A stretch of DNA of 64,000 bases. Origin: a candidate division FCPU426 bacterium. Lineage in GTDB: Bacteria > Oederibacteriota > Muellerivitia > Muellerivitales > Muellerivitaceae. Made by a program: the position numbers and the translations under genes. Location of the stretch: assembly GCA_963796105.1 (NCBI GenBank), contig CAWCKJ010000004.1, forward strand, positions 928,001-992,000, in the 5' to 3' direction. A model generated the notes under the pieces. The model was not told where the DNA came from. It did not search any database and was given only the letters and a program-made list of their open reading frames with translations. Shown in pieces: positions 13,413 through 60,651 of the stretch; the stretch's first letter is position 1; each line of letters begins with the position of its first letter.

Positions 13413-13756
13413 TTGGCATCCTCTTGAAATTGAGCCAAATTCCTTGAGGTGATCACGGAGGTATCGAGCTTTCTCTGGTTTTCCGCGTATTTTTGGAATT
13501 TTTTTAAAAGGTCTATCGCCATGATCAATTCCCCAATCTTGGCTTTGAGTTTCTCATTCTCTTTTTCCAATATTTTTTCGTGAAGGGAAGGTTTTTCAAC
13601 CAAGGTTCCTTGGCGATATTTATCGCGCCAACGGGTTATAACGCTTGGATTGAGCTGGTATTGACGAGCAGCTTCATTGAGCGATAGGCCAGTTTCTACC
13701 TCGTGGACGACTTGTTCTTTGAAATCAATACTGAACTTCCGTCTTATTTTACCCAT
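13409..13756 (-). CDS. IS3-family transposase OrfA (HTH)
   Basis: 'RRKFSIDFKEQVV', HTH then coiled coil; A7 slippery site 'LLKK'. Confidence 0.92.
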   Translation of the reverse strand: MGKIRRKFSIDFKEQVVHEVETGLSLNEAARQYQLNPSVITRWRDKYRQGTLVEKPSLHEKILEKENEKLKAKIGELIMAIDLLKKFQKYAENQRKLDTSVITSRNLAQFQEDAK

Positions 13757-33400: not shown

Positions 33401-34343
33401 CACACCCACCCAGACCTTCACCCCAACGGCGACAAGCACCTCCACTAACAGCCCAACAGCCACGAACACTTTCACCCAAACGAACACACCCACTACCACC
33501 AACACCTGGACCCAGACGAATACGGCGACGATGACGAATACCCCTACTAACACCCCGACTGTGACGAATTCCGCGACCCAAACATTCTCCCCGACCGTGA
33601 CAAACACTCCGACCAACACCCTGACCGCCACGGACACCTTCACGCAAACGAACACTCATACCCCGACTAATACGTCCACGATCACTGATACGCCCACCCT
33701 GACCTTCACCCCGACCGTCACCCCAACCCCCACGAATACCCCGACACCGACCCTGACCAGGACCGTGACCAACACTCCCACGGATTCGATGACGCCTACG
33801 GCATCCCTCACCGCTACGCCTACGGCTTCGCCAACCCTTACTAAAACGCCGACGGTCACGCGGACTCCGACCTTGACCCGCACTCCAACGAAGACTTCCA
33901 CGCCCACTTCCACCCGGACGCCTACACCGACCCGCACCCCCACGAGGACCCCGACACCCACGAAGACCCCCACGCCCACGGTGACGGCTTCCTATACCCC
34001 GACTTTGACCCCGACCCCGACTATCACCAACACGCCGGGGGCGACCTGGACGCCGGAAACCGACATATTCACGGTGACCAAGAACTTGTTCCAGGGCGGG
34101 GAACCGGTCTTCATCACGGTCGGGACCAGCCAATATCCGGGGAACCTGGAATTGAGCGTTTACAACTCGGCGGGGGAACACATCAAGACGCTGGTGGACA
34201 GGTACCTGACGGCGCCTTACACGGGGACCGTTTATTGGGACGGGACCAACAAATTCGGGGACAAGGTCGCGAGCGGGGTTTACATCTTCTACCTGGTGGA
34301 GCCCTTTGACCGCAAAGTGAAGCGGATCATCTTCATCAAGTAG
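27468..34343 (+). CDS. Giant secreted protein: PA14, DUF11-like Ig domains, CBM3-like insert, ~1600-aa Thr/Pro stalk, FlgD-Ig/T9SS-CTD-like end
   Basis: PA14 'FSVKWYG...[11 protein letters not shown]...YNIEMDYYE'; DUF11 '[21 protein letters not shown]'; CTD '[23 protein letters not shown]'; alternative start ATG 27477. Confidence 0.85.
31981..32420 (+). repeat. Two tandem ~222-bp near-identical units inside the Thr/Pro stalk
   Basis: ccccgacggtgacaggcact recurs at 31981 and 32203. Confidence 0.8.
32581..33350 (+). repeat. Three tandem ~258-bp near-identical units inside the Thr/Pro stalk
   Basis: cggtcacaaacacctacacgccc recurs at 32581, 32839, 33097; identical antisense ORFs in track. Confidence 0.88.
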
Positions 34344-37656: not shown

Positions 37657-37741
37657 TTTCCCCCTCTGAAAGAGGGGGAATAAGGGGAAGTTAGCCTTTT
37701 ATCAACAACTAATACCCCCCCACCCCCCTTTTTCAAAGGGG
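37657..37741. repeat. REP-like palindromic repeat (CCCCTCT-GAAA-AGAGGGG / CCCCTTTTTCAAAGGGG), left copy
   Basis: Inverted homolog at 39271-39419; partial third copy ~37843-37860. Confidence 0.7.
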
Positions 37742-38033
37742 CTTATATAGTTAACTCCCTTTTCCTTCTTTTGCCTTCTTTTTTTCAGGCGTTTTTTGTT
37801 TATTTGCGGGCATATCGTCCTTTCGGGAGTGAAGTAAATAAGTCCCTTTTCAAAGGGGGGCAAAGAATTCGTGAAATGCACTTTCCGTATAGGCATGTAG
37901 GATTTTCTTTGAATCCCATTTATCCCATGCATGCCGAACCTCAATTAAGCTTTTATAGAAAGTTCGGTATCGTATCGATTTCCTTAACTGCTTTATGGGG
38001 AATCGGTACATCTGTGGCGAAAATTCTTTCGAT

Positions 38034-39270: not shown

Positions 39271-39419
39271 TTCCCCCCTTTGAAAAAGGGGGGAGGGGGG
39301 TATTAGCTTTTGTTGTGTAACACCCAGAGGCTAACTTCCCCTCAATCCCCCTCTTTCATACTGTTCCTCATATAAATTTAAAAAATGAGAACAGCATAGT
39401 GCTTTAGCACAGAGGGGGA
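39271..39419. repeat. REP-like palindromic repeat, right (inverted) copy with ~50-bp insertion
   Basis: Reverse complement matches 37667-37741 (gaaagaggggga...ggggaagttagcct...ctaatacccccc..cctttttcaaagggg). Confidence 0.7.
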
Positions 39420-42299: not shown

Positions 42300-42800
42300 C
42301 GCCGGATAAGCAAACCGGCCAAAACCTTTAAATTGGCCATAAATTCAGCTTAGGCTGATACTAAATCGTCATTCTAATGAATCATTATCTGAATTCCTCA
42401 ATTCCCTCCGGTGGTAGTCTTAGAGTTACTAACAAGAATTAAAGTCCACCACGGGTTTCTTCGAAACCACTGGGGCACAGCAAGGAAAAGATTTAAAAAT
42501 TCAAAGGATTTTAATTGTGTCTTTGTGAACTGCCGAAGGCAGTCTGTGGTTAAAGCTTTTTTGTTGGAAGTTTTAAATAAAAAAAATGCCCAATTCTTGG
42601 AAGAGCGTGGAACCCTTGGGCGGTCCCTCGCCGTGAAGGTCCTATTCATCCCAAATGAAAAAGTGGAAGGAATAGCCGGGGAGCGGGGGACGCTTGAAAC
42701 CGCTTCCAAGGGGATTTTTTCCGTAAAAAGTTTCACCGTTCATAAAAACATTTTCATTCCGGCTCGTCCGCCGGTTTTAAAGAGCGATGGGGAGCCTGCC

Positions 42801-45800
42801 GTGACTGTTCGCGAAAGAATCATTCCTATTTTCCTTTCCCTGCTTCTGGGCCTATTCCTATGCGCCATTCCAACGGGGAACGCCTGGGCCCAGGCCGGTT
42901 CCTGCACGGTGGTCAGCGCCACTCTTACATGGGCCACGGATGACGAGGGTTATATTTTCGTGAACGGACAGTATCCCGTCAGCTGTTACTGGCAGAACTG
43001 CTGGGAGGGGGCCGATTGCGGCAATTCCGCCGTCAGCTGCCAGACCCCCATGACGATCTGCAATGGGGACTGCGCGGGCTTCTTCAACAACACCGGCGAC
43101 AACATACTCGCGGTTTACGGTTGGGCCTCGGACACGGGGTGGAACGGTTCCTCGTGGCTGTTGAGCCTGACTTTAGGGGGGGCCGGATGCACCATGACCA
43201 CCCAATACGTGGAGTCGGGAGGACCATGCGTGGTCGCGAAATACATTTTTAACGACACGAACGCCAGCGGCTATAACCTGCCAACCACCCTGCAGGGGGG
43301 AGGGTCCGGCGTTTACGCCGGCTGGCTCACGGCTGGTTTCAACGACAACGGATGGGTGGGACCCTATTCTGACCCCGTGACGGCTGATTGGGGTTACAAC
43401 TGGTTTCCCATTCCCAATCCGGCTTCGCCAGGTACGTATGTGCCTTGGACCTGGGGCGTTTACGGTTTTAACTACACCACGACCGCGGGGGACGGATACC
43501 TCTATCGAGAGCACTTTACCATCGGCACGAATTCTTGTTCCAACACGCCGGGCCCGACGGTGACTCCGATATTCACCTTGACGAAAACCAACACCCCGAA
43601 CCTGACCCTCACCGCCACGCCAACTTACACCTATACCTATACTAATAGCCCGACCCCGACCAGGACTCCCACGCCCACCAACACACCCACGATTACGCCC
43701 ACTCCCACCCCAACCAATACACCCACGAGGACGCCCACACCCACCCCGACTCCCACGCCCACCAACACTCCGACCAGGACGCCTACTCCGACCCCCACGA
43801 ATACACCGACCAATACGCCAACGCCCACGCCGACGAATACCCCGACACCCACTCCATCGCCAACCCCAACCAGGACGCCAACCCCAACACCCACCAATTC
43901 ACCGACCCCAACACCCACGAATACGCCGACCCGGACCCCAACACCCACCCCAACGAATACCCCGACTAATACCCCAACTCCCACGCCCACTCCTACACCT
44001 TCCCCGACACCCACCCGTACTCCCACACCGACTCCGACAAACACCCCCACCCCAACTCCAACCAACACCCCGACTAGAACCCCGACACCTACTCCCACGA
44101 ACACCCCGACCCCTACCCCCAGCAACACACCCACCCCTACGCCGACCAATACGCCCACACCAACTCCTACGAGGACCCCAACACTAACTCCCACCAACAC
44201 CCCGACACCATCGCCCACCCCAACCCCAACTAGGACTCCAACACCCACACCCACAACTACTCCCACGCCGACTCCCACTAACACACCTACCTCCACTCCG
44301 ACTGTAACGCCTACTCCCACTCCAACCAGGACCCCGACCCCAACACCAACGAATACTCCAACTCCCACTCCCACGAACACCCCGACTCCAACCCCCACTA
44401 CGACGCCAACACCGACCCCAACCAGGACTCCTACTCCCACGCCTACTAACACTCCGACACCCACTCCGACCACAACCCCGACCCCCACCCCCACGAATAC
44501 TCCCACACCGACCCCGACAAGAACGCCTACTCCGACACCGACAACCACTCCCACCCCGACTCCGACCAATACACCCACTCCGACACCTACTAACACGCCG
44601 ACTCCAACCCCGACCCGAACCCCGACGAATACTCCTACCCTGACACCCACCAATACACCCACAAATACGCCGACGCCCACACCCACGACAACTCCAACGC
44701 CTACCCCGACGAGAACTCCCACTCCCACGTCTACGAATACACCGACTCCAACACCGACAGCCACTCCGACACCCACTCCTACCAATACGCCCACAAGAAC
44801 ACCCACCTCCACTCCGACTCCCACGCCGACCACAACCCCTACTCCAACCCCGACCCCGACTCCCACCATTACCCCAACACCCACTAATAGCCCCACGGGA
44901 ACGCAGTCGCCAACGAACACGCCGACGATTACTCCGACCAAGACTCCGACTCCGACTCCCACCAACACTCCAACGATCACGCCCACGCCTACCAATACCC
45001 CCACAAGGACTCCGACTCCTACACCGACTAATACGCCTACTCCCACTCCAACAACGACCCCTACCCCAACACCCACTCCAACAACGACGCCTACTCCCAC
45101 ACCCACTAATACGCCCACCCCAACCCCCACGAGGACGCCCACTCCCACTCCAACGACCACCCCGACCCCTACACCCACCAATACCCCGACTCCTACTCCC
45201 ACGAATACTCCTACACTCACTCCTACAACTACCCCGAGCCCTACTCCAACGAGAACCCCGACGCCTACCCCTACGAATACTCCTACACCCACCCCCACGA
45301 CCACCCCGACACCTACTCCGACTAGGACACCGACACCCACTCCTACCTCCACGAATACCCCTACACCCACCACAACCCCGACTCCGACCCCCACCCACAC
45401 GCCAACCATCACACCAACTCCAACCAATACGCCTACAGGAACTCAGTCTCCCACGAATACTCCTACCATCACCCCGACCAAGACCCCGACGCCTACTCCT
45501 ACACCCACTCCGACTGTGACACCTACTCCAACGCCCACGAATACCCCAACGAACACGCCTACCAATACGCCGACGCCAACACCTACCACGACTCCCACGC
45601 CGACCCCAACGAATACACCCACAAGGACTCCGACGAATACCCCGACCCCTACTCCTACGACCACATCCACCCCTACGCCGACTTCTACACCTACTTCTTC
45701 CCCAACTAATACCCCGACACCCACCCCAACCACAACGCCGACACCTACTCCAACCAACACTCCTACGGTTACCCCCACTCCGACAAACACGCCGACGGGG

Positions 45801-47957
45801 ACGACATCTCCTACCAATACGCCCACGGTCACGCCCACGAATACGCCTTCCCCAACAGCTACCAGTACTCCAACTACAACGCCGACACCTACACCTACCG
45901 CTACACCCACCGCAACACCTACGAACACGTCGACCCATACACCCACCACCACCCCGACCCCTACTTACACATCTACTCCCACACAAACACCCACTCCTAC
46001 TCCAACCGATACCTCCACTGACACGCCTCTTTTCACCTTTACAAACACCAATACGCCCACAGACACATCAACCCCCACTAACACCAACACACCTACGAAC
46101 ACGCCGACTAATACTCCCACTCCAACACCCACTAATACCCCGACACCGACATTCACGGACACGCCGACATCCACGCCAACACCTACTCCAACCGATACCT
46201 CCACTGACACGCCTCTTTTCACCTATACAAACACCAATACCCCTACCGACACTTCCACCCCCACTAACACCAACACACCCACGAACACGCCGACTAATAC
46301 CCCCACTCCAACACCCACTAACACTCCCACCAACACCAACACTCCAACGGAGACTTCCACGCCCACGAATACCTATAGCCCCACTAACACGCCAACCAAT
46401 ACCCCGACCCCTACTCCCACCAATACCCTGACCAACACCAACACGCCCACTAATACCCCCACCGCTACCAACAGCTCTACTCCCACCAAGACTTATACGG
46501 CCACCAATACCCCCACCAATACCAACACCCCGACTAACACCAATACTCCTACCAATACGCCTACTCCTACTCCCACCAGGACGCCTACTAACACTTCCAC
46601 TCCCACGAATACGCTTACAGCCACGAATACACCCACTAATACCAATACCCTGACACCTACCCCCACGGCGACCTTCACTCCCACCCCCACGCCTGCCGCG
46701 GTATTGGCCTTGCAGAAACAGGAGTCGGAATCAACAGGTTCCTCGGGGGATATGGTGACCTATACCTTGAATGTGAATGTTTCTAACGCCAACGCTCCCG
46801 GGGTAGTGGTGCAGGACCAACTGCCTCCCAACTGCACTTTCACGGCCTTCGGGGTCTCACCAGCAGGAACATCGGCCGTAACCACCGTTTCAGGCGGGGT
46901 GACCATGATGAACTGGACATTGCCCACCCTTATCCCTGGAAGCTACCAATTGACTTATACAGTCTCGATTAACAGCTTCACGCCCGCGGGACCCATTGTG
47001 AACTGCGCGGTCTTAAACTATCCGGGAATCTCACCATTGAGTTCCTGTGCCACATTAATGGTGACAGGGAGCTACACGGTGAAGATCGGGGTGTATAACG
47101 AGGCGGGGGAACTGGTCAAGACCCTGTTGGTGACCCAATATTCCCAGCCCTTGGTGGACCTGCAGTTGAAGAACGGGGATCTGATTAATGGAATGAATGA
47201 CCCCATCCTGATATATGACCAGAACACCCAGATCACGGTGTGGAACGGGACGGACCAGAACGGGAACCCAGTGCCCAATGGTGATTATTACGTGAAAGTG
47301 GACAATGTCGATTCCTTCGGGGTGGATAAGAGCGTGGTATTGAACGTGGTGGTGAGCAGGTCGTTGGAGAAGGTGACGATCGACATTTACAACGAGGCTG
47401 GGGAGATCGTGGACACGCTCTACAGCGTGGTGGAGGACCCTCAAGGGACGGTGATTACGGGGGTGAAGCTGTCAGGGACGGTGTTGGAGCCGGGATCGCC
47501 GACAGACGGGAACCTGATTATTACGACAAATAACGGTGTCACAGCCATCTGGACAGGGTACGCTTCAAGCGGGGCGGTGGTACCCAACGGGAAATACTTC
47601 ATCGAGGTGCACTCCACCGATGGAAAAGGCGGGGAGACGGTGATCGTGACATCGGTGATGGTGCTGAACAACCCGAAACAGACGGTGCCGAAAGTGTGGG
47701 CTTATCCGAACCCCTTAACCGGTGGTTTCAGCCAGGTGGAGTTCCAAGGATTTGCGACAAACGTGAACCTGACGGTGAGGATTTACGACCTGTCGGGAGA
47801 GCTGGTGACGGAACTCAAAGGCGCCGGGGGAACGAGCCGGGTGACCTGGAACGCCGCGGGAATCGCCAGCGGGCTCTACATCGCCAAGGTGGAACAGAAG
47901 GACCTGACAGGGAAGATCATTGCCAAGCAGACAATCAAGGTTTTGGTGGGGCAATAA
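42801..47957 (+). CDS. Giant secreted protein: Cys-rich lectin-like head, ~1050-aa Thr/Pro stalk, DUF11-like domain, tandem FlgD-Ig domains and T9SS-CTD-like end
   Basis: GTG 42801 after GGGGAG gives signal peptide ending 'AWA-Q'; '[10 protein letters not shown]', 'W..GFND.GW'; CTD '[23 protein letters not shown]'. Confidence 0.85.
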
Positions 47958-48039
47958 ACCTAAACCCTATTCTTCAATGGATGACGACTTCCTTATTTTG
48001 CGTTCCGCTTTTGTTCATCACCTCGATGTGGTACTTGCC

Positions 48040-48275
48040 TGGGCTGTCGGAAAGGGAGGCCCCCTGTCGGAATAGGCGGTCTACCTGCCGGACGCCTTGC
48101 CGGAAAGGTCGGGCTCCTGTCGGCATAGGCCGGTAAGCCGAGATAACCCGTCGACAGTACCGTCGGCATAGGCCGGTAAGCTGAGATAACCCGTCGACAG
48201 TACCGTCGGAATGGGAGATAAACCGCCCACATTTCCGTCGACACCCGTCTTTAGGAGGGATATTCCGCCGGAAAC
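48040..48275. repeat. Modular repeat array with two tandem 43-bp units and GATAACC/CCCACATTT/GATATTCC modules
   Basis: gtcggcataggccggtaagc(c/t)gagataacccgtcgacagtacc at 48119 and 48162. Confidence 0.8.
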
Positions 48276-48307
48276 CCAAGTTCAATAGGCCTTAACTGCC
48301 CCTATAG

Positions 48308-48432
48308 ATTAAGACTTTAGCTGAGTCTCTGAGTCCCTGTGCCGATTTTCATATAGAAATTAATGATATCGGTACGATACCAGCCACTTTTAAATCTAAA
48401 TGGAAGGCTGGCATGTGGTGGATATTGGTTTT
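48308..48432 (+). repeat. Double-hairpin non-coding element, copy A
   Basis: 123/125 identical to 50379-50503; divergent inverted copy at 57124-57241. Confidence 0.9.
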
Positions 48433-48569
48433 CCGCCCACATTCCTGCCTGCAGGTTTCGAGATTTGACGGTTTGGCATGGAACGCGCCCTACAAGTTGG
48501 ACAGTTGAAGCAAAAAATAGAGAATAGGGAAACGGCTCAAGGGGTAACCCCCCAAAGGAGCATTTCCAA

Positions 48570-48917
48570 ATGGGTAAAATAAGACGGAAGTTCAGTATTG
48601 ATTTCAAAGAACAAGTCGTCCACGAGGTAGAAACTGGCCTATCGCTCAATGAAGCTGCTCGTCAATACCAGCTCAATCCAAGCGTTATAACCCGTTGGCG
48701 CGATAAATATCGCCAAGGAACCTTGGTTGAAAAACCTTCCCTTCACGAAAAAATATTGGAAAAAGAGAATGAGAAACTCAAAGCCAAGATTGGGGAATTG
48801 ATCATGGCGATAGACCTTTTAAAAAAATTCCAAAAATACGCGGAAAACCAGAGAAAGCTCGATACCTCCGTGATCACCTCAAGGAATTTGGCTCAATTTC
48901 AAGAGGATGCCAAATGA
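48570..48917 (+). CDS. IS3-family transposase OrfA
   Basis: Identical protein to 13409-13756. Confidence 0.92.
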   Translation: MGKIRRKFSIDFKEQVVHEVETGLSLNEAARQYQLNPSVITRWRDKYRQGTLVEKPSLHEKILEKENEKLKAKIGELIMAIDLLKKFQKYAENQRKLDTSVITSRNLAQFQEDAK

Positions 48918-49750
48918 TGGGGCTTCCTCGAAGTACCTATTATTCTGCACTTAAAAGTGAACCGGAGATTCAGGAACAAAGAGATTTGGACTTAAAGAAC
49001 CGAATCGAGCAGGTGAGATTGACCTTCCCCTACTACGGCTATCGGAGGCTCTACCACCACTTTTTACGGGAGGGATTAAGGATTAACGCCAAACGGATTC
49101 GGCGGGTGGTAAGGAAATACGGTCTTTACCCTATTATTTGGGGGAAAAGGTTCAAGATCCAAACCACCCAATCCAATCACGACCTGCCGGTGTTCCCCAA
49201 CCTCTTGGAAAGGGTGGCAGAAACTGCTGTCAATCAAGTGTGGGTGGCGGATATTACCTATATCCGAATCCTCACTTGCTTTGTTTATCTGGCGGCCATT
49301 CTGGATCGTTTTTCCAGAAAGGTGATCGGGTGGGCGGTTTCCAAGAGACTGGATCGGGAGTTGTCGCTTTCGGCTTTACGCATGGCTTTAGAGGAAAGGA
49401 ATCCTCTTCCGGGATGCATCCACCATTCAGACAGAGGGGTGCAATATGCCTGCTGGGATTACGTGGCCCTGCTTGAGTCCAAAGGATTAAGGATCAGCAT
49501 GTCCAGGACAGGCAACCCTTACGACAATGCAAATGCGGAATCCTTTTTCAAAACCTTGAAATATGAGGAGGTGCATCTATTCAATTACGAAACTTATCAG
49601 GAAGTGCTTCAAAGACTTCCATACTTCATCGAGGAGGTGTATAACAAAAAACGGTTGCATTCTTCTATCGGCTACATGCCGCCTGAGGAGTTCGAGGCTT
49701 TAAAGTCACTCAAACCAATCGCCGGAAAACCTATTCTCAACTTGGAGTAA
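48914..49750 (+). CDS. IS3-family transposase OrfB
   Basis: Identical protein to 12576-13412; -1 frame open from A7 at 48821-48827. Confidence 0.95.
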   Translation: MMGLPRSTYYSALKSEPEIQEQRDLDLKNRIEQVRLTFPYYGYRRLYHHFLREGLRINAKRIRRVVRKYGLYPIIWGKRFKIQTTQSNHDLPVFPNLLERVAETAVNQVWVADITYIRILTCFVYLAAILDRFSRKVIGWAVSKRLDRELSLSALRMALEERNPLPGCIHHSDRGVQYACWDYVALLESKGLRISMSRTGNPYDNANAESFFKTLKYEEVHLFNYETYQEVLQRLPYFIEEVYNKKRLHSSIGYMPPEEFEALKSLKPIAGKPILNLE

Positions 49751-49779
49751 AAACTGTCCAAGGTTTGGGGCGCACACCA

Positions 49780-50068
49780 GCACAATCGCTTCGAAGTGGC
49801 ACAATCCCCGAAAAGTGGCACATTCGGCCAAGATGCCCCTATGCTGAGCCCACAAGGCGAAGCATGTGATTTGGGTGTGTTGGCGCCAAGATATTGGGCG
49901 CCAATAAGCCGGTGTCAGAAAAACTGTGGTTTTATTGGAGTTTTTTATCCGTTTTAATAACCGTTTTTGATTGTGCCAACCGATTGTGCCATTGTGCCAC
50001 TGGATTGTGCCAATTGTGCCACTCGGTTTTACCGGGTTTGGCACAATCGCCCCGAAGTGGCACAATCC
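49780..50068. repeat. Cluster of ~10 TGGCACAAT 9-mers in both orientations around an AT-rich core
   Basis: Forward at IS junction, 49797, 49816 (variant), 50039, 50058; reverse at 49970, 49983, 49991, 50004, 50013. Confidence 0.85.
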
Positions 50069-50079
50069 GGCTCCGGGAA

Positions 50080-50330
50080 TACGAGGATAAACCGCCCACA
50101 TTTTCGCCGGTAAACCGAGATAACCTGGTGACAGGCTGAGATAACCTGGTGTCATTTTCGACGGTAACCCGGGATAACCTGGTGACAGTCCCGGTTGCAT
50201 GTGTAGGGAAGGGGATAACCCGGTAAACTAAATTGGCAAGAGGCCGGTTTTTCCGGCGACATGGGAGATAACCCGCCCACATTTCTACCAAAACCCGCCG
50301 CTCAGCCGAGATATTCCACCGGAAAACCAG
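50080..50330. repeat. Second GATAACC/CCCACATTT/GATATTCC modular array
   Basis: gataa(c/a)c at 50086, 50119, 50140, 50173, 50214, 50267; gatattcc at 50310; related to 48040-48275. Confidence 0.75.
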
Positions 50331-50378
50331 CTCACTTGTTCGTTAACCTAATCTCATGGGGAGTTATTCTTCCAATAA

Positions 50379-50503
50379 ATTAAGATTTTAGCTGAGTCTC
50401 TGTGTCCCTGTGCCGATTTTCATATAGAAATTAATGATATCGGTACGATACCAGCCACTTTTAAATCTAAATGGAAGGCTGGCATGTGGTGGATATTGGT
50501 TTT
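50379..50503 (+). repeat. Double-hairpin non-coding element, copy B
   Basis: Direct repeat of copy A with 2 substitutions. Confidence 0.9.
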
Positions 50504-50599
50504 TCACGGGTATCCAACGCTATTCGCGGAGTTTATACTAGCTTTTTAAGGCCTAGGTGAACCCATCCAACCGCTTTGGCGGTCCGGGAGTCACAATCC

Positions 50600-52738
50600 A
50601 TGAACCAGCGTCATAAGCCAAAACAACAGCATAGGAAAAAGGCCATCCCCCGCCCAAAAACGGGAAAAAGCCCGAAAGCCCGCCGTCCCAAGCCTGGATA
50701 CCGTCCTCCCCAATCGCGGACTCCAGCGCGAAAGCATCCTGCCATCCGCCACCCGGAAAGCGAGGATGTTTACCGCTCGATCATCGATAACATGCAGGAC
50801 GGGTTCATCCGCACGGACATGGAAGGAAATATCATTCTGGCAAATTTCTCCGCCTTGAGCCTGTTGGGAGTTGATTCCTTGGAGGAAATCTGCCTGGCGG
50901 ATATGAGGAAAAACTTCTACGCGGACCCAGAGGACAAAAACCGGGTATGGAATGCATTGATGGACCATGGGATTTTCCGGAATTTCGAAACCACCCTCAA
51001 ACGGAAGGATGGAAGCCCTATGTTTGTATCCTCCACGGCCCGGGTCGTCCGTGACGGCAAGGGCAAACCCATCGGCATCGAGGGATTCTTCAGGGACATA
51101 TCGGAACGCAAGCGGCAGGAGGAGGAGACCGCCAAATCCGGGCAGTGGCTTCAAATGGTGCTGGACCATTTCCCGGGGCTGGTTTTCGTCAAGGACCGGA
51201 ATTCGGTGATACTGGGGTGCAACAAGTATTTCGCGGAGTCGGCTGGGAAATCAAACCCGTCGGAGGTCGTTGGCAGGACCGACTTCGAGATGGGTTGGCC
51301 GAAGGCTGAAACTGACCGTTTCCGGGCCGACGACCGCGAGGTGATGGAAAGCGGGAACCCGAAGCTGGGCATCATCGAGCCGCTGACCCGCCAGGACGGG
51401 CAGTTCGCCTGGCTGGAGACCAACAAGGTCCCCTTAAAGGACTCGAAGGGCCGGGTGGTCGGCATCCTCGGGACGGCGCACGACATCACCGAAAAGGTGA
51501 AGGCGCAGGAACTCCGCATCGCCAAGGAATCCGCCGAGGCCGCCACCAAGGCCAAGAGCCGCTTCCTGGCCCACATCTCCCACGAGATCCGGAACCCCAT
51601 GGTCGCCATTCTCGGTTATTCCCAGCTCCTGGATCGGGACACCTCCTTGACCCCCCAGCAAAAGGAATACCTGGGAATCGTCAACCAGGCGGGGGCGCGC
51701 CTTTTGGAACTCATCAACGACGTATTGGAAATGGCCAAGATTGAAACCGGGCGCTTGGAGTTGAAAAACCACCCATTCCATTTACTGAGTGTCATCAAGG
51801 AAGTCTCGGAACTGATGAGGGCCCGGACCTGGGAGAAGAAATTGGAATTCCGGACCGAGGCCGCCTCGGGCTTGCCCCGCCAAGTGACCGGCGACGAGGC
51901 CAAACTGCGGCAGATTTTCCTGAACCTCCTTTCCAACGCGGTCAAATTCACGGATAAGGGAAGGATCACCTGGCGGATCGGCACACGCCGCGAGCCTGGC
52001 GGAAGCAGCGGGAAGATCCGCCTGGTTTGCGAAGTGGAGGATACCGGCATCGGGATCACCCCCAAGGACCAGGAAAAATTGTTCCATACTTTCCAGCGGG
52101 GCGACTCGCCCGGCGCGGCAGGGAAGGAAGGGACGGGCCTGGGGCTTACCATCAGCCGCCATTTCGCCCGCCTGATGGGCGGGGACATCACCCTCAAGAG
52201 CGAGGCGGGAGCGGGCAGTTGTTTCAAGGCGGAGGTGGTCCTCGAGGAGAACGAGGATTTGGGCGCCGTGTCTAAACCCCGCGAGTCGTTTCCGGTGGTC
52301 CGGATCAGGGCCGGCCAGGGTCCTTACCGGGTCCTGGTGGCCGACGATAAGCCGGATAACCTGCTGTTGCTGAGGCTGATGCTGGAACGGGTCGGTTTCC
52401 AGGTCCGGGGAGCCTCCGACGGGAAAGAGGCGGTCGCGGTGTTCGGGGAATGGTCACCCCAGCTTGTTTTCATGGACCTGGGGATGCCGGTGATGGACGG
52501 TTTCGAGGCCGCCCGGCTCATCAAATCCCACCAGGCGGGAAACCAAACCGTGATCGTGGCCGTCAGCGCGAGCGTTTTCGAGGAGGAGCGCAACAAGCTG
52601 AAGGAATACGGCGTCGAGTGGTTTCTCCCAAAGCCGTTCCGGGAGGAGGAACTTTTCCAAATGATCGAAAAATGCCTGGGTGTCCAGTTTGAGTACGGCC
52701 CCGAAGACCCGGGCGGCCCCCCAAAAAGCGAGCCTTAA
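50600..52738 (+). CDS. Cytoplasmic hybrid histidine kinase (PAS-PAS-HisKA-HATPase-REC)
   Basis: Two PAS/PAC, 'SHEIRNPM', 'NLLSNAVKFT', 'DTGIGI', 'GTGLGL', REC 'LVADD..FMDLGMP..KP'. Confidence 0.92.
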   Translation: MNQRHKPKQQHRKKAIPRPKTGKSPKARRPKPGYRPPQSRTPARKHPAIRHPESEDVYRSIIDNMQDGFIRTDMEGNIILANFSALSLLGVDSLEEICLADMRKNFYADPEDKNRVWNALMDHGIFRNFETTLKRKDGSPMFVSSTARVVRDGKGKPIGIEGFFRDISERKRQEEETAKSGQWLQMVLDHFPGLVFVKDRNSVILGCNKYFAESAGKSNPSEVVGRTDFEMGWPKAETDRFRADDREVMESGNPKLGIIEPLTRQDGQFAWLETNKVPLKDSKGRVVGILGTAHDITEKVKAQELRIAKESAEAATKAKSRFLAHISHEIRNPMVAILGYSQLLDRDTSLTPQQKEYLGIVNQAGARLLELINDVLEMAKIETGRLELKNHPFHLLSVIKEVSELMRARTWEKKLEFRTEAASGLPRQVTGDEAKLRQIFLNLLSNAVKFTDKGRITWRIGTRREPGGSSGKIRLVCEVEDTGIGITPKDQEKLFHTFQRGDSPGAAGKEGTGLGLTISRHFARLMGGDITLKSEAGAGSCFKAEVVLEENEDLGAVSKPRESFPVVRIRAGQGPYRVLVADDKPDNLLLLRLMLERVGFQVRGASDGKEAVAVFGEWSPQLVFMDLGMPVMDGFEAARLIKSHQAGNQTVIVAVSASVFEEERNKLKEYGVEWFLPKPFREEELFQMIEKCLGVQFEYGPEDPGGPPKSEP

Positions 52739-53324
52739 TCCGATAAGCGGGTTTTAATTCCTAATTTCTTATGCTGGCTTGCTTTCCGATCATCGGAAAT
52801 CCTCAACCATTCTCCGAATAAAATTATATGGCTCTCTCTGAAATGCTTAATACTCTGTAAAATACCGGACAGATATGTATTTTTGTGCCTTCGGAAATTT
52901 CCGAGCTTCTTATTAAACTTTCAGAGCGAAATGACCAAGCAACTGAAGTGAGACTTGATATTTTTATCCCAATAAGTCCGACTTTATAAAAAACGCTCAA
53001 AATTTCAGAACGAAATTCAGCGGGTTTTATTTTTTCCTCAACAACTTCACGTGCTTTTCCATACAATAAATCACTTCGAGCTATATCATTCACTGCGATT
53101 TCCAAACACAAATCAAGGATTTGCTCATCTGTAATTTCCAAAGCAATAAAAAATGTTGAACGTCCTTTTAGAATTTTCGCCGCATAAAATAGCAGTTGCG
53201 GGTAATCACCGAACCATTCGTCCGCAAGAGAACGAAAACGCGATTCGGAATATTTTGCTTCTGCGATTCTTATCGATGCTACGCTAATTTCAGGATTACC
53301 TAAGGAAGCTTCAATACAATAATT

Positions 53325-54736
53325 CACTGCTGTCCTAGATAAACCTATTTGTCTTTGAACCTCCCAGGAAAACAAGCGATTTAGGACAGGCTCGTGAATT
53401 TTCTGGGATAAGCCCCCCTCTTTCGTCCTGATGCTGTCCAAATTAAGAATGTATTAATTCCATCTGCTTTTCCAAGGGTTCCAGTCTCGCCACTAGGAAC
53501 GGTGCATCCAACCAGGCCCACAAATCACGATAGGTCAACAGGTTCATCCGTAGCATGGCAGCCAAGTGGGATAAACTCCAGGCGATCCGGCTCTTCAATT
53601 GAAGGAACTTCAACAGTAGCATGGCAATCAATGCTGTCCAAATCTGCGTCTGAACGGCATTCTCAGTGGTACCCACAAAAGTTTTTACCCGGAGGTTCTG
53701 CTTGAGAGCCTTGAAAAACAACTCGATCTGCCAACGTTCCTTGTAAATGGCACCCACCGTCGAGGCGGCAAAACCCATGTGGTTGGTCAGGAACACCAAC
53801 TCCCGCTTCTGGTCTTCGTCCCATACCACCACCCGTCGCATCTCTTTAGGGTAGGCTTCATGTGACCGAAACGTCGTCAACCGTATCACCTGGTCCTTCA
53901 GGACGTTGCCCGTTTTCGGAACCGTCAGGCTTTTCACCACCTCGTAGGCCATGTTGATCTTGGCCCGGGTCACCCACCACACGCCTTGGAATGTCCATCG
54001 GGCCAGAAGAAAGAAATCCACATACCCCCGATCCATCACCACGATTGAATCCACTGGAAAATCGAGCTTTTGGGCCACCTTCACGTCATGCGTGCCTCCC
54101 TCCGTTACGAGTCCCCAGCAGGGCAAGTACCCCTGATGGTCCAGCAGAAGATGGAGTTTGATGGCCCCTTTGGTTCTACGGAATTTCGCCCAGTCGAACA
54201 CTGACAAACAAAGGTCGATGGTGCTGGAATCCAGGCTATAAAGAGGATTTTTAAACCTGAATTTTCTTTTTGAGGTGGCCGCCAACAACTGGCACTTCGA
54301 TAATAAATGGTAAAAAAGCTTTTGTTGAACCCGCCAAGAACGCTTGGTGTTGGCATAGGCCAAGGTGGATTTAGTGGGAGCTTTGCAAAGACCCAAGTGG
54401 GTCAATTTCCCAAGGGCCGTACTGAGGCCGCCACAGATTTCCCTCAAGGAATGGGCTGCTCCCATCTGGCAGAAAAGCATGGAAACAAACTGATCCCAGC
54501 AACTGAATCCCTTGGAGTGCTTTTCGGCTTCAATCTCTCGCACGATTCGCTCAAAAGCGGTTCGGTCTACGAGTTTCAACACTTGGGCAAATAGACTGGT
54601 TGGTGGTACCATAAAAAAGCGCCTCCGTATGTTTGAAGTAGCGACGGCTGGTAACCGTTGCTTTGGGCTGTCATCAAACCCAATTCTACTTCAATCGGAG
54701 GCGTCTTTTTTTAGGCCTTTATTTAGGACAAGAGTG
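53325..54736 (-). mobile_element. IS4-family insertion sequence (1412 bp)
   Basis: IRs CACTGCTGTCCTAGATAAA / CACTCTTGTCCTAAATAAA; 9-bp TSD ACAATAATT at 53316-53324 and 54737-54745. Confidence 0.93.
53443..54612 (-). CDS. IS4-family DDE transposase (DUF4372 N-terminus)
   Basis: 'FSCWDQFVSMLFCQ..SLREI', 'LDSSTI', 'MDRGY', 'YKERWQIELFFK'. Confidence 0.93.
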   Translation of the reverse strand: MVPPTSLFAQVLKLVDRTAFERIVREIEAEKHSKGFSCWDQFVSMLFCQMGAAHSLREICGGLSTALGKLTHLGLCKAPTKSTLAYANTKRSWRVQQKLFYHLLSKCQLLAATSKRKFRFKNPLYSLDSSTIDLCLSVFDWAKFRRTKGAIKLHLLLDHQGYLPCWGLVTEGGTHDVKVAQKLDFPVDSIVVMDRGYVDFFLLARWTFQGVWWVTRAKINMAYEVVKSLTVPKTGNVLKDQVIRLTTFRSHEAYPKEMRRVVVWDEDQKRELVFLTNHMGFAASTVGAIYKERWQIELFFKALKQNLRVKTFVGTTENAVQTQIWTALIAMLLLKFLQLKSRIAWSLSHLAAMLRMNLLTYRDLWAWLDAPFLVARLEPLEKQMELIHS

Positions 54737-55939
54737 ACAATAATTAAAAAATTCCAAAATATCTCTTGGCCTATTTAATGTCATCCTACCCAGATATTCA
54801 TCAATTGGGATTTTTACGATATGTTTTGGAAATATATCTATCCATGAAACATCACTTTTTTTATATCTATGACTTATAAGTTTTCTTATTCTTAATTCCA
54901 ATAATTCTAATAGTTGTTTATCTGACCAGCGGATATTTAGAAAAAAACTTCTATATTTTTCTTCTTGAAAACCAACTTCTCGGGTTAATCTAATAACCCT
55001 TTCCAGTAAATCTTGTCTTAAAGCAATAATTACTTTTAAGCCAGGGACCCGTGAAAAATCACGTGCATTTTCTATCAATGCTTTTATTAGTTTAAATCTT
55101 AATTTGTCATCAACCCAATCCTCATCTAACTTATCAATAACAACAAAGTGTCTTGGCAAACAGTCATTGAAATATTCATCCGTTAATATTTGAACTACTT
55201 CATTTAATTCGGCAATTTGGATCTGATCGATAACTTTTTGGGCTTTATGAAGAACTTCAGATTTAGTTTCTACCGCAAAAGAATTTTGAGCTTCTATTGA
55301 AGTTTTTAGTTTTGATAATTCAGCGCCTATTTTTGAGTTAATATCTGATTCTAATTTTTCCGTTACTTCTTTTACACGATGCTCTGTTGTTTGCCAAAAT
55401 GATTCACCCCATTGGCGTAAATAATCTAACGCTCTTTCTTTCTTTTTATCTTTTTTAAAAAGTAAAAGAAATGTCGATAAAAAATCATTTTGATCTTTCT
55501 CCGTTCGCATTTTAAATTTCATTTTTATCATTTCGACACAAATAATATGTTTCCATAATAATTTATAAAATAAACTTAAATTCACACCTATTGATTCTAA
55601 AGTCTGCAAAAATTCAGAATCGGCTAAATATCTAAATGAAAGTTCATCTGGATTTAATAATACGGTGAAATGTTCTCTTTGGTTCAATTCTATTAATAAT
55701 GCGGATTTACCAACACCGGTTCTTCCAACAACGATACATTTGTTATCAGAACAATTTATAAGTGTTTGAATATCACCATTATCATAAAAGCAATTTAAGA
55801 GAAATTCTTTATCATCTTCAGCTGCGGCTGCGCCGACACTATCATATTTATTAAACTTAAATTTATCTTTCCGATTTGATGACATTACTTAACTCATTTC
55901 ATTAATTAAGAGAAATTATTTTATACTATTTTAAACTCG

Positions 55940-56925
55940 CATGCTTCTGTATTAAGTGACCCTTGAAATAAAGGAATACATAGGTATACTGTCCGCTACG
56001 GGAGGTGGTACATGAGCTACCAGCGGATGAAAAGCATTAAAATTCTGAGGAAAATCCACACGGAAGAAGAAGCCCGCCAATGGGTGTGGAGATGCCGTTT
56101 CGGCGGGAAAGACTTTGTTTGTCCCCAATGTGAGGGCGAAAGCTTCTGGCAACACCAGGCCAAGCCTGAAGTGAGGGAATGTGACTATTGCCGGAAACGT
56201 CTTCGGCTTCGCGCCGGGACGATTTTTGAAAGCTCCAAGCTGCCTCTTTTAACCTGGGTCAGGGCCATCAGTTTGATGATGCAGGGCAAACGGGGTATTT
56301 CGGCCCTGGAACTGAAGCGGCATTTAAATCTTTCGGATCATTCGGCATGGCTTCTATTGCATAAGATCCGGGAAGGTCTTAGGCAAAAGGACGAAAGCTA
56401 TACTCTAAAGGGCGTCATTGAGTTGGATGGGGCGGTTTTTGGGAAAAAGGCCAAGGAAAACCAAGTGGAAGTCTTGGTGGCGGTGGAAAGCAAGGAATGG
56501 GTGGATGAGAATGGTTGCAAGAAGGAAAAAGCGGGTTTTGCCAAGGTGAAGGTAGCTATGGAAACCAAGTGGGAGAGCCAGGAATTCGTGAATCAGACTA
56601 TGGAAAAAGGCTCTTTCCTCAACACAGATGCTTCGCCAGCCTTGCGTGAACTCAAAGGAGTGGAGGCAGACTACCGGGTGATGGCCAATGACCCGAAAGA
56701 GTTGGAAAGTTGGTTGCCCTGGGTACACCGGTTCATTTCCAACGCCAAGGCCTGGATCATTGGAACTCATCATGGCGTTGATGCTAAGTATTTAGGCCGG
56801 TATCTAAGTGAATATGCCTATCGGTTCAACCGTCGTCATGATCCCGATTCCTTATTTCACCGTGCTTTGACCGCATGTGCCTTAGCAAAACCCATTACAG
56901 CACGGTCACTTTGTGCATAAGCATA
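55940..56925 (+). mobile_element. IS1595-family insertion sequence (986 bp)
   Basis: IRs CATGCTTCTGTATTAAGTGACC / TATGCTTATGCACAAAGTGACC; 8-bp TSD TAAACTCG at 55932-55939 and 56926-56933. Confidence 0.9.
56012..56920 (+). CDS. IS1595-family transposase
   Basis: Zn ribbon CPQC..CDYC, 'GTIFESSKLPL', 'VIELDG', 'GTHHGV..KYL..YL.E..YRFNRR'. Confidence 0.92.
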   Translation: MSYQRMKSIKILRKIHTEEEARQWVWRCRFGGKDFVCPQCEGESFWQHQAKPEVRECDYCRKRLRLRAGTIFESSKLPLLTWVRAISLMMQGKRGISALELKRHLNLSDHSAWLLLHKIREGLRQKDESYTLKGVIELDGAVFGKKAKENQVEVLVAVESKEWVDENGCKKEKAGFAKVKVAMETKWESQEFVNQTMEKGSFLNTDASPALRELKGVEADYRVMANDPKELESWLPWVHRFISNAKAWIIGTHHGVDAKYLGRYLSEYAYRFNRRHDPDSLFHRALTACALAKPITARSLCA

Positions 56926-57123
56926 TAAACTCGAGAATATTTTGACTTGAAAGTCTCTTTAACAGCTACGAATAAATACTTTGACTCACTTATAATAGTG
57001 TAAAAATAAAACATATTCCTGAATTCTAAATTAGGCAATGACTCTTTGAAGTAGTAACTCAAAATTAGGAATTTCTGAGAATTCGGTGGGCAAAACAGGT
57101 AAAAAGGGAACGTTTTTGTGCAA

Positions 57124-57241
57124 AAAATCAGGTTTCACCACATGCCAGCCATCAGTGAAGCTTTTAAAGAGGCTGGTATAGTACCGATTTCATTAACTGT
57201 TTTATGGTAAATCGGCACAGGGACTCAGAGTCTCAGCTAAA
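57124..57241 (-). repeat. Double-hairpin non-coding element, copy C (inverted, divergent loops)
   Basis: Reverse complement TTTAGCTGAGACTCTGAGTCCCTGTGCCGATTT...ATCGGTACTATACCAGCC-N20-GGCTGGCATGTGGTG. Confidence 0.88.
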
Positions 57242-57482
57242 AACCACAAAACTATTGGGTAAAGGCGTAAAAAACAACTCCGAAGAATTACAAACAAAAT
57301 CCGATTCCCTCACATGGCGACTTTCTAAATAAGCCAATTGAAACGGTATAGTCCCACATGTCTTTTCTGACTTATGGAAATGTGGGACAGGGTCTCAGTT
57401 AAGAAAATACCTAAAATTCATGGGGTATAAGCTTCAAAAGAACATTGATGAGGAAAAAATCCGTTTTAGGCACAGAAAACTC

Positions 57483-59007: not shown

Positions 59008-60651
59008 CCTGAATTTTGCACCGAGTTTACCGATTCCGTGGCCAGATCGGCCTGAATCGGGACCCGACAGTGGCCATTTTCATCAGAAGTGAACTTATGT
59101 GCAAAGAATTTTTTGCACCAAGCCACTTCTAGGCCGCCCTGGGTCTTTCCAATCGTTTTCGATCAAGGTATTTGAGGAAACCCAATAGGCCCGCTGTCCT
59201 ATCATCATGGATTGAATACCTCACCACATCCCGATGGCCGTGATACTGGATTCGGGCGGCTACAAAGAGCATCTTCAAACGTGCGATCCGAAGGGTATGG
59301 TCCGGCATGGTGATCTGTTCCTTCTCCTGTGGCTTCTTTCCCGGTCGCTTTTCTTTTCCACAATGGCCCACCATTAGTTTCATCCACCTCCAGAGGTTGT
59401 AAGCCAGCATCACGATCTGGAAAAAAGCATGGTGGCTTTGGAAACTCTTAGAGGGAATTGCTAATAACCCCTCCCGTTGCGCCTCACCAATCAGGTTTTC
59501 CACATCCGCGCGCAGGTCGTATTCCTCAACCACCCGATGGGGTGCTCCCAGACAGTTGGTCGCGAAGATTCGGTAGACATATCCTTCCATTTCAGGAAGG
59601 CTCAATTGTTTCTCCCGCGCTTTTTCATCCAGCGTCCTCATCGCCACAAACCGGACTGGTTGTTGCCAGCCTATGGGTTGATGGACACATTCGTTGTATT
59701 CGTGTTCTCCATGGCGGTACCAACCCTTTTTCGTGAAAGGCGGGTCATGCCGCTTGTTCCCGAAGATGAAAGAAAACCCTTCTTTTTCACAGGCTTTCAC
59801 GCTTTCCCAGCCGATCATTTCACCGTCACCGCGCACCAGAATCGTCCGGACACAGGACGGCAAGAGTCGCCGGAATTGTCTAATTTGGCGGGCCACTTCC
59901 TCAGAACTAAGGGTGGTTCCGCGTCTTTGGGTTCCGCACAAATATTCCCGGGTTTCCTGGAGAAAACACAGAATGGGCCTCAGTCCCTTCTTGCCCCGGT
60001 GCTTGGGGTTGTATCCTTTTCGGCTTCCCTCGATATTTCCGTAGACCGTTGCGGTGGTGGTATCGATGTTGATCTCCACCTTCTTGGGGGCATATTTCAC
60101 CTGTCCCCAAACCTTGGCCCGTAACGCCCCACTCAGATTCAGCAACGATGCCGACTGCCCGATCCCCAGCGACCTCAGGTATCTCCAAAAAGTTGTCACT
60201 ACCGGCAACAAGGGAACCCGCAGTAAACCGCACAGCATGACCTCACCCCGCAGGTAGGCAAAATGGCCAAGTCTTTGGAACCCGATGAAAAGAAGCATTA
60301 GGATGCCGCTTACCATCCGGTAGTGGCCCAAATTCGGAAGGCGTTTAGGTGCGGCATAGTGTTTTTTGAATTCCCGCTCAAAATCAAGAAGGTCGAACAT
60401 CTTCGCCAATGCCAACAATCCGCCAAAAGCTGTTAGGCGGTCTTCGCAAATACCTACGGGAGTATTGGCCGTAATCTTGGGCGCGATTCTCCCGTTTCGA
60501 TTGGCTTTTTTCTGGACTTGCGGGTTTGATTTCTGAGGCGTATCTTGACGTTTCACCATCTGGGGGACCCTCTTTTAGGATGAGTTGGCTTCGCAACCCT
60601 TATCCTATAATGGTTTCCTAGATGGTTTTTTTATTAGGCGCAAAATTCAGG
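59008..60651 (-). mobile_element. IS1380-family insertion sequence (1644 bp)
   Basis: IRs CCTGAATTTTGCACC / CCTGAATTTTGCGCC; 5-bp TSD TAATA at 59003-59007 and 60652-60656. Confidence 0.92.
59129..60559 (-). CDS. IS1380-family transposase
   Basis: 'LTAFGGL', 'INIDTT..VYG..EG..GYN', 'VRGDG', 'Y..RA.VEN.I.E'. Confidence 0.9.
   Translation of the reverse strand: MVKRQDTPQKSNPQVQKKANRNGRIAPKITANTPVGICEDRLTAFGGLLALAKMFDLLDFEREFKKHYAAPKRLPNLGHYRMVSGILMLLFIGFQRLGHFAYLRGEVMLCGLLRVPLLPVVTTFWRYLRSLGIGQSASLLNLSGALRAKVWGQVKYAPKKVEINIDTTTATVYGNIEGSRKGYNPKHRGKKGLRPILCFLQETREYLCGTQRRGTTLSSEEVARQIRQFRRLLPSCVRTILVRGDGEMIGWESVKACEKEGFSFIFGNKRHDPPFTKKGWYRHGEHEYNECVHQPIGWQQPVRFVAMRTLDEKAREKQLSLPEMEGYVYRIFATNCLGAPHRVVEEYDLRADVENLIGEAQREGLLAIPSKSFQSHHAFFQIVMLAYNLWRWMKLMVGHCGKEKRPGKKPQEKEQITMPDHTLRIARLKMLFVAARIQYHGHRDVVRYSIHDDRTAGLLGFLKYLDRKRLERPRAA

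Follow-up and report, generated by a model that had tools for sequence, protein, structure and literature searches.

A double hairpin that recurs in the window (the whole 64,000-nt stretch of DNA that was analysed), twice directly and once inverted, raises the question of what kind of element it is and how it arrived at its sites. Self-comparison of the window bore out the direct repeats A and B (48301-48432 versus 50372-50503, 97%) and the inverted copy C. The 5' block, both stems, the 1-nt linker and the tail given in an earlier sequence-only reading were found again by re-inspection of the sequence. C differs from A only in the loops and the linker; A and B have the same 76-nt core, and B lies in a stretch of 132 nt, host and unit together, that is duplicated locally (97%). 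The three copies reported there are real, but the window holds six members (Table 1) and the source genome has the element at 150 loci. Overlooked were the divergent member, whose host is related to that of A, B and C, and the fourth full member, which lies in a different host of heptamer type. The member with the collapsed left hairpin is inserted between T and G inside a palindrome of purine/pyrimidine runs.

Table 1. Features in the window (a slash in a core marks the unit end)
Feature	Position	Strand	Remarks
Fourth full member, 79 nt	37931..38009	-	T/G core; 71 bits
Member with collapsed left hairpin	39358..39410	-	28.7 bits
Host repeat, left part, split by A (the former 5' block)	48316..48338	+	uninterrupted host 10 times in genome
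Unit A, 76 nt	48339..48414	+	T/G core at both ends, centre C-G-A
Host repeat, right part at A (GTGGTG tail)	48415..48420	+	
Presumed IS3-type element between A and B	48471..49781	+	second copy at 12545-13855
Host repeat, left part at B	50387..50409	+	
Unit B	50410..50485	+	identical to A
Unit C, 77 nt	57142..57218	-	T/G core, centre C-T-A
Host repeat, left part at C	57219..57241	-	
Divergent member, left stem GTCCCACA, right stem decayed	57314..57388	-	T/G core; 27 bits, E 2e-4

The mobile unit is the twin hairpin alone, 75-81 bp long (typically 76-77 nt). The 5' block and the GTGGTG tail, previously counted as parts of the element, belong instead to a separate host repeat that the unit interrupts; the genome has five filled copies of this host beside the uninterrupted ones. 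The unit is laid out as y/R1..Y1-N-R2..Y2/r, and its first and last bases are identical to the target bases. It consists of two homologous monomers placed back to back, which accounts for two features already pointed out, the RTRCC start of all four arms and the preference of the wobble pairs for opposite strands. The ends share merely 4-5 bp and the arms diverge beyond that. The doublet is the unit: apparent singles proved on inspection to be doublets with a divergent partner, save a few hits, and in tandem arrays units are joined end to start. A second loop of exactly 20 nt holds for A and C with their 9-bp arms, but across the family loop length is only modal: 160 of 255 units have 8-bp arms around a second loop of 22 nt, and lengths run from 20 to 27 nt. 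Substitutions are not spread evenly over stems and loops. Among 255 units the two loops have 235 and 229 distinct sequences, and 38 of 3570 stem cells are broken as counted by a parser biased toward intact stems. Folded on its own, the unit does better than dinucleotide-shuffled controls (A and C, both strands, z -3.0 to -4.0), and folding is weaker with the formerly included flanks (RNA z -1.4 to -3.0). Two-sided changes occur at 8 of 16 stem pairs, a covariation score reached by 0 of 500 shuffles. Position 3 is G.T in 262 outer-first hairpins and A.C in 255 inner-first hairpins; this irregular pair is symmetric and therefore the two strands are equivalent.

The element is a short, palindromic repeat with many extragenic copies and a restricted distribution, being present in 28 of 31 genomes of the bacterial family and in 0 of 68 others in the phylum; model hits across the family number about 700. 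Viral contigs gave 0 matches, and literature searches returned no account of this element. Insertion is precise and often falls within other repeats; the two ends carry an identical YR dinucleotide, which is TG and in rare cases CG or TA, so that a 2-nt core stands at both ends without net duplication. Exact removal of the unit restores an 18-mer present elsewhere in 105 of 221 units (some of these are tandem junctions), while five alternative boundaries do so in just 0-1 units. Empty sites, orthologous or paralogous, are known in a gene and at start codons, and the 3' ends of tRNAs are restored at insertion. One suspected insertion within a tRNA gene turned out to lie in a tRNA-derived repeat. 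Among public runs, none of RNA was listed as containing the stretch; four DNA runs, covering mainly the IS elements, contained no joint at the units.

The centre of the unit follows the target. If one base is skipped, Y1-N-R2 reads as the reverse complement of the target dinucleotide: C-N-A for TG, C-N-G for CG and T-N-A for TA. This rule is obeyed by 99 of 101 strict twin hairpins, which were found without a flank constraint, and a locally shuffled genome yielded 0 strict twin hairpins. Among adjacent hairpin pairs it holds in 99/99 family members versus 10/233 non-family pairs. In 265 non-tandem units, the centre base and the base outside were A/T in 251, G/C in 10, A/C in 2 and G/T in 0; the other such pair was C/G in 253, T/A in 7, T/G in 2 and C/A in 0. 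Collapsed to 67 target classes, the association gave Fisher p values of 2e-6 and 1e-4 (about 2e-5 and 1.5e-3 after one mis-oriented row was moved by hand). Non-TG events are few, about five CG and two TA target classes plus tRNA copies. One monomer is found with either terminal pair, and 36/36 and 35/35 of its inner bases are the same in the TG copy and the CG or TA copy. One CG copy (L246) has matching ends and an unmatched centre, and a sister subfamily with the centre GGGGA-N-GTCCCC departs from the rule. The 2-nt repeat at the ends covaries with the centre; because ends and centre nearly always change together, reading the centre as a guide is not separable from a requirement that the ends match. 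The CA strand has ATAG at the centre, followed by 2 nt and a 5-bp stem. Of the 291 units listed, 174 have ATAG as the tag on this strand, and the third base of the tag is free; the tag position reads ATNG on one strand and ACNA on the other, with no GTAG or CGTC. Judged from genome variation, the cut dinucleotide is complementary to tag bases.

We put at about even the chance that this is a REP/BIME-like non-coding element inserted precisely at YR, which likely moves as single-stranded DNA that an HUH transposase of the TnpA-REP/RAYT type cuts and rejoins in trans. The enzyme would read where to cut from the bases at the unit's own centre. The A.C mismatch in the 3' hairpin of each strand would leave A-Y-N-R unpaired 5' of a 5-bp stem, much like a REP tag, and the tag is indeed unpaired on both strands in the predicted folds. 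Tag positions 2 and 4 would presumably pair with the two bases that flank the scissile bond. Since the tags of the two strands overlap, one trinucleotide would set the identical cut on both strands and give exact ends. Cuts at both ends would free a circle of ~77 nt, for which 484 of 578 strand-folds predict a dumbbell. The circle would then join a matching YR in exposed single-stranded DNA, such as other repeats, tRNA 3' ends and start codons, and joining into its own junction would yield arrays. The suggestion of a non-autonomous mobile element end was right in that the element appears mobile and non-autonomous; the element, however, is the complete twin hairpin rather than an end.

Known REP systems share several of these traits. 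In the account of the group 3 REP/TnpA-REP system of Marinomonas sp. MWYL1 (REPtron Mb), the REP consists of GTAG, 2 bases and a 5-bp stem, T2 and G4 choose CA, a change of tag shifts the site, and this position-2/4 guide rule of the transposase was established in vitro (PMC8266576). Our unit likewise has a tetranucleotide, 2 nt and a 5-bp stem, a dinucleotide site predicted by tag positions 2 and 4, and a site that shifts with the tag, here by natural variation and there by tag changes. As far as described in the same source, it differs in the tag (ATNG/ACNA versus GTAG), in loops of 20-30 nt versus 4 in REPtron Mb and 3-4 nt in group-3 REPs, in the overlap of two tags in one trinucleotide, and in that no tnpA-REP gene was found flanked by the unit (PMC8266576). 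Tail-to-tail REP dimers such as GTAG-19 of Opitutus terrae are also inverted dimers with the tags inside, 1-2 bp apart, and some REP dimers are reported within other palindromes or in frame in genes (PMC3733652). By that description, our unit is set apart by the lack of a GTAG/CGTC tag, by fixed ends at a YR core, by its many unrelated hosts and by restored tRNA 3' ends (PMC3733652). With E. coli BIMEs and Pseudomonas REPINs it has in common the doublet as unit, tandem arrays, a stem mismatch and insertion into or beside other repeats (PMC3333891, PMC3116915), and excision as a single-stranded circle has been proposed for BIMEs (PMC3333891). By these accounts BIMEs vary in their linkers and cut sites, and a REPIN folds into a single long hairpin that has its tags outside; in our unit the two monomers fold separately and the ends are exact. 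IS200/IS605 elements have a hairpin at each end, no net duplication and a 4-5-nt site; our unit is two-fold symmetric and usable on either strand, has a 2-nt site, and was not seen in an autonomous form. End hairpins and the absence of net duplication are shared with IS200/IS605 ends and their non-autonomous derivatives. Target reading by pairing with an internal guide, as described for IS200/IS605 (PMC3479197), would be a further shared trait.

We searched for the enzyme in several ways. No Y1 gene flanked by the unit was found among the 16 Y1 hits of the genome and 10 further Y1 loci, and no partner gene among the ORFs near the copies in this genome, among 1041 ORFs beside 318 units, among 108 HUH-motif ORFs of the genome, or among the loci read for Y1 families and their flanks across the order (incomplete genomes). 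An active TIR-bounded Y1 family does not track the element (13/22 pattern-positive versus 6/10 pattern-negative genomes, hand count). Two candidates were rejected: a divergent TIR-type Y1 protein present in 9/32 genomes and absent from the source genome, and GxxExxY genes present in 26/30 other family genomes, two element-free ones included. No partner was recognized among the tyrosine recombinases (36 hits), IS110 (1) and reverse transcriptases (0) of the genome. An autonomous form with a gene between the monomers was absent from the inspected hits (26 of about 40 new loci viewed). A RAYT remnant of 106 aa occurs family-wide and also in the three element-free genomes; it was rejected as the catalyst because HUH and the catalytic helix are missing.

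Taking these results together, we tentatively propose, at somewhat less than even chance, a self-guiding minimal DNA transposon with fused REP-like ends, in which guides overlapping in one trinucleotide program the same dinucleotide cut on both strands. It would have been retargeted naturally several times (TG to CG, TG to TA), would settle in other selfish repeats and at tRNA 3' ends while leaving these intact, and would be kept family-wide alongside a RAYT that is domesticated and catalytically dead and may bind the element or hold it in check. The spread of REP/BIME is still termed unresolved in the literature consulted (PMC8266576, PMC3333891), partly because the ends are ragged. The element described here has exact ends and natural variants with a joint change of centre and target base, and therefore makes that question directly testable. 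It also illustrates how other repeats, tRNA ends and start codons can serve a repeat as safe places to land. If the self-guiding transposon is true, it would supply natural genome-scale evidence that REP insertion is guide-directed, together with a programmable substrate of 77 nt; should simple core matching be the mechanism, the element is still an undescribed family-wide repeat.

Core matching is what the former "multi-site recombination site" now stands for, kept solely as a rival and in our view unlikely: an excised circle would undergo conservative recombination via the matching 2-nt core, by a tyrosine or DEDD recombinase acting on a folded substrate (attC-like or IS110-like). The centre would track the target only because the terminal stem base pairs must stay paired. 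The same core at both ends, the absence of net duplication, the head-to-tail arrays, the predicted dumbbell and the L246 copy all suit it, as does a genome with 36 tyrosine-recombinase hits and one IS110. Against it, the arms abut with a 0-1 nt spacer versus the 6-8 bp of tyrosine-recombinase cores, and no recombinase gene adjoins any of the 318 units. Integron attC sites carry RYYYAAC and GTTRRRY boxes between gene cassettes, with an integrase; the unit alignment shows no such boxes, and the copies are dispersed in the genome rather than lying between cassettes. Non-autonomous IS110 elements resemble ours in the 2-nt core at both ends and the lack of net duplication, but a bridge RNA directs them to a common target of about 11-14 nt. 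Our 162 distinct 12-mer targets have only YR and a weak CC..GG bias in common, insufficient for one bridge RNA.

An ordinary DDE MITE with 4-bp inverted ends and a 2-bp target duplication, its centre later corrected by template switching or conversion between the arms, appears improbable. Formally, the boundaries do allow a description as TGCC..GGCA with a 2-bp duplication, and DDE elements are plentiful in the genome. For known DDE MITEs, terminal repeats of just 4 bp would be too short. If the centre had been corrected afterwards, many unmatched centres should remain and the position-3 mismatch should be repaired as well, yet this mismatch is kept in about 255/299 hairpins. Recent non-TG insertions with matched centres have in part been seen, and the unit arms are unlike the IS30 ends of the sister genome. 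MITE terminal inverted repeats are given as 15-30 bp (PMC3733652), and here, unlike in DDE-mobilised MITEs, the 2-nt repeat is tied to internal sequence.

We also give little credence to a unit that is now passive, that is, an old insertion in larger host-repeat composites, homogenised by conversion and without mobility of its own. Many copies do share hosts and spread as host-plus-unit composites, which are gained or lost as wholes between two congeneric genomes, and some copies are conserved at orthologous sites across genera. The 67 target classes, near-identical units at different positions of different hosts in one genus, and insertions in unique sequence, genes and start codons argue for mobility.

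The lead of the sequence-only reading, a structured non-coding or cis-regulatory RNA with variable guide-like loops, is very improbable: its stems covary and start codons hold 10/310 copies, but the strands are symmetric, either one can be the mRNA strand (21 versus 13 copies) with no strand bias, Rfam matched a single tRNA in the window and not the element, insertion into other repeats is precise, and loops match their own targets no better than shuffled pairings (5.02 versus 4.91-5.11). The loops are not guides. The element between A and B, which we take to be of IS3 type from its two ORFs, is a bystander.

The sequence-only reading described copies A, B and C of the twin-hairpin repeat accurately: A and B are direct repeats with 97% identity and C is inverted. 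Their near-identity was also confirmed: A and B share the same core sequence, from which C deviates solely in the loops and the linker. The three copies are real, but three is not the total: with a covariance model, six members are detected in the window. An Rfam search of the window gave no match at the element. A single-hairpin profile yielded 292 monomer matches in 150 clusters (238 with E<0.01) in the 5-Mb genome. By the same covariance model, 28 of 31 genomes of the bacterial family have members, against 0 of 68 genomes elsewhere in the phylum; the three member-free family genomes still gave no match at E 0.5.

Alignment of 119 doublets indicated that the unit (75-81 nt) consists of two homologous monomers placed back to back with one base between them, which is why all four arms start with RTRCC. 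The unit flanks are other repeats. The 5' block and GTGGTG tail, previously taken as element parts, belong to one host repeat (a repeat split by the unit) that is found uninterrupted ten times and filled five times in the genome. Exact removal of the unit restores an 18-mer known elsewhere in 105 of 221 units, some of them tandem junctions, while each of five other boundary placements yields 0 or 1. Among 47 distinct non-tandem empty sites, 22 are intact elsewhere, compared with 13% of 69,799 intergenic TG/CA sites. Orthologous or paralogous sites that lack the unit were found at start codons and within a gene. In a congeneric genome 12 of 55 units could be mapped to the genome studied here, and nine of these sites lack the unit; in three rows a unit sits in another host or at another position. 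Among the hosts are heptamer repeats, purine-run palindromes, REP-like hairpins and IS-end hairpins; the names used for these hosts are GxxExxY-, DUF559- and GIY-YIG-type. Tandem arrays reach eight units, all with the same junction.

The locus can be written y|R1...Y1-N-R2...Y2|r, in which the last base of the unit equals y and the first equals r. If one base is skipped, the centre (Y1-N-R2) reads as the reverse complement of y-r. This rule is obeyed by 99 of 101 matches in a strict scan without flank constraint, and the same scan on the locally shuffled genome gave no matches. Among adjacent hairpin pairs of the whole genome it is kept by 99/99 family members versus 10/233 others. The core, the YR dinucleotide at both unit ends, is mostly TG; CG and TA are also present, with the centre following the core. 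In 265 non-tandem units (323 parsed minus 58 tandem rows, the GGGGA subfamily and long-loop units set aside), the inner and outside bases are A/T in 251, G/C in 10, A/C in 2 and G/T in 0, and on the other side C/G in 253, T/A in 7, T/G in 2 and C/A in 0. After collapse to 67 target classes, p = 2e-6 and 1e-4; one row is a TG unit read backwards, and with that row reassigned manually the values become about 2e-5 and 1.5e-3. The core switch is not confined to a single subfamily, since for two monomers a TG copy and a CG or TA copy differ in nothing but the terminal pair. Where the unit is inserted at tRNA-Arg 3' ends, it sits within the acceptor stem, at C|G or C|A, with a matching centre, and its first arm rebuilds the last six tRNA bases (both such copies of this genome and four in relatives; one further copy is degenerate). 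Exceptions are one CG copy with an unmatched centre and a few one-sided changes. A sister twin-hairpin subfamily (centre GGGGA-N-GTCCCC), found within a poly-C/poly-G palindrome repeat, departs from the core rule. Units of about 100-160 bp downstream of tmRNA and tRNA-Leu(gag), Glu(ctc) and Ser(gct, tga, cga) have one internal repeat in common and finish with a copied tRNA or tmRNA 3' end; they look like tiny integrative elements.

The unit works like a REP doublet. The closest known kind is the tail-to-tail REP dimer with 1-2 bp spacing, as portrayed in passages of PMC3733652. On the strand with core C|A the centre is ATAG in 174 of 291 units, the third base being free, followed by two bases and a 5-bp stem. 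In the Marinomonas REP, according to passages of PMC8266576, GTAG is followed by two bases and a 5-bp stem, CA is cut via T2 and G4, and a tag change shifts the site; PMC3479197 gives the structural basis of guide reading. Applied here, the T2/G4-type positions give predicted cuts at C|A on one strand and T|G on the other, C|G for CG copies and T|A for TA copies. It is about an even call that the unit is mobilised as a single-stranded circle, in trans, by a tag-guided HUH enzyme. Such an enzyme would bind the 3' hairpin on either strand and cut both unit ends, and the freed circle would be joined into a matching YR; excision of a single-stranded doublet circle is proposed in PMC3333891. The circle is predicted to fold as a dumbbell (484 of 578 predictions), and the exact ends would follow from the two tags overlapping. 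The main rival, core-matched recombination in which the centre follows the target only via stem pairing, is rather unlikely in our estimate; the genomes do not separate it from guide reading because ends and centre change together. Searches of open-access text turned up no paper in which the centre of a repeat naturally covaries with its target. As a class of repeat the twin-hairpin family is ordinary; what surprises, and lends itself to testing, is its exact ends together with the centre-target rule.

A structured ncRNA is very unlikely, and the unit failed the test of one functional strand. Stem covariation is present in 57 sequences chosen for diversity and intact stems (two-sided changes in 8 of 16 pairs; a score reached by no shuffle). 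At position 3, outer-first hairpins have G.T (262) and inner-first hairpins A.C (255), and therefore both strands look alike. In the predicted fold the 5' hairpin closes fully and the 3' hairpin leaves the linker and its first three and last three bases unpaired. The mRNA strand is sometimes one strand of the unit and sometimes the other (21 versus 13 of 79 units, with 30 far from any gene). Loops seldom recur (235 and 229 distinct sequences among 255), and they match their own targets no better than shuffled pairings. The unit is not classed as a GTAG REP, since its tag is not GTAG and, among the loci read, no REPtron (a REP plus its tnpA-REP gene) was found; DDE MITE, attC and IS110-type target also failed their tests.

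The search for a partner enzyme found none: genes beside the units showed no recurring family, and the Y1 genes examined are flanked either by inverted repeats of their own or by GTAG REPs. A single-copy, roughly 105-aa protein, a remnant of a RAYT (REP-associated tyrosine transposase), occurs in 30 of 31 family genomes; outside the family its one weak match is an ordinary RAYT. Its clade is small (4 clusters at E<1e-30 in a protein library). The predicted structure (pLDDT 88) keeps the Y1 fold, aligning with IS608 TnpA (Z 15.3, rmsd 2.6, 104 aligned) and TnpA-REP (Z 9.9, rmsd 2.2, 98 aligned). The HUH motif and catalytic helix are absent: R and E stand in place of the histidines, and the chain stops ahead of the catalytic tyrosine, which by known chemistry excludes it as the catalyst. 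It is possibly a domesticated hairpin-binding protein. Its link to the element is only a lead: the three element-free genomes have it too, and any gene specific to the family would share the element's range. In some of the active TIR-bounded Y1 elements a 25-nt hairpin interrupts the right inverted repeat.

Coordinates of the repeat units and other features (C followed by a number, contig of the same assembly; L followed by a number, locus handle)
Feature	Location	Remark
Unit A	window 48339..48414, +	
Unit B	window 50410..50485, +	
Unit C	window 57142..57218, -	
Repeat tracts upstream of A and B	window 47990-48300 and 49780-50330	21-22, 33 and 43 bp repeats; split by IS3-type element
Inverted pair of palindromic repeats	window 37667-37741 and 39274-39358	purine/pyrimidine runs; one contains a collapsed family member
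Presumed IS4-type element	window 53443-54612	10 near-identical genome copies
Presumed IS1595-type element	window 55940-56925	32 near-identical genome copies
Presumed IS1380-type element	window 59129-60559	22 near-identical genome copies
Secreted-type protein, 1848 aa	window 42411-47957	very long Thr-Pro repeat; comparable repeats at 29200-33700
Units at ATG start codons, in frame	C1:59845, C4:750289, C13:4774	would extend N-terminus by 26-27 residues
Unit creating 26-codon leader	C6:188581	leader stop overlaps the start
Repeat of ~65 nt in centre of unit	C2:103367, C4:769514	apparent TA duplication
GGGGA-N-GTCCCC sister subfamily	C2:239230, C2:249568, C3:488141, C3:588234; L073, L075	
RAYT remnant	L397:3280-3600 (C4 near 794,800)	
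Active TIR-bounded Y1 elements, 312-318 aa	e.g. C12:332364-333302	at least 13 copies in genome
TIR-type Y1 protein	L363:1426-2436	HUH motif lost, catalytic-motif tyrosine retained
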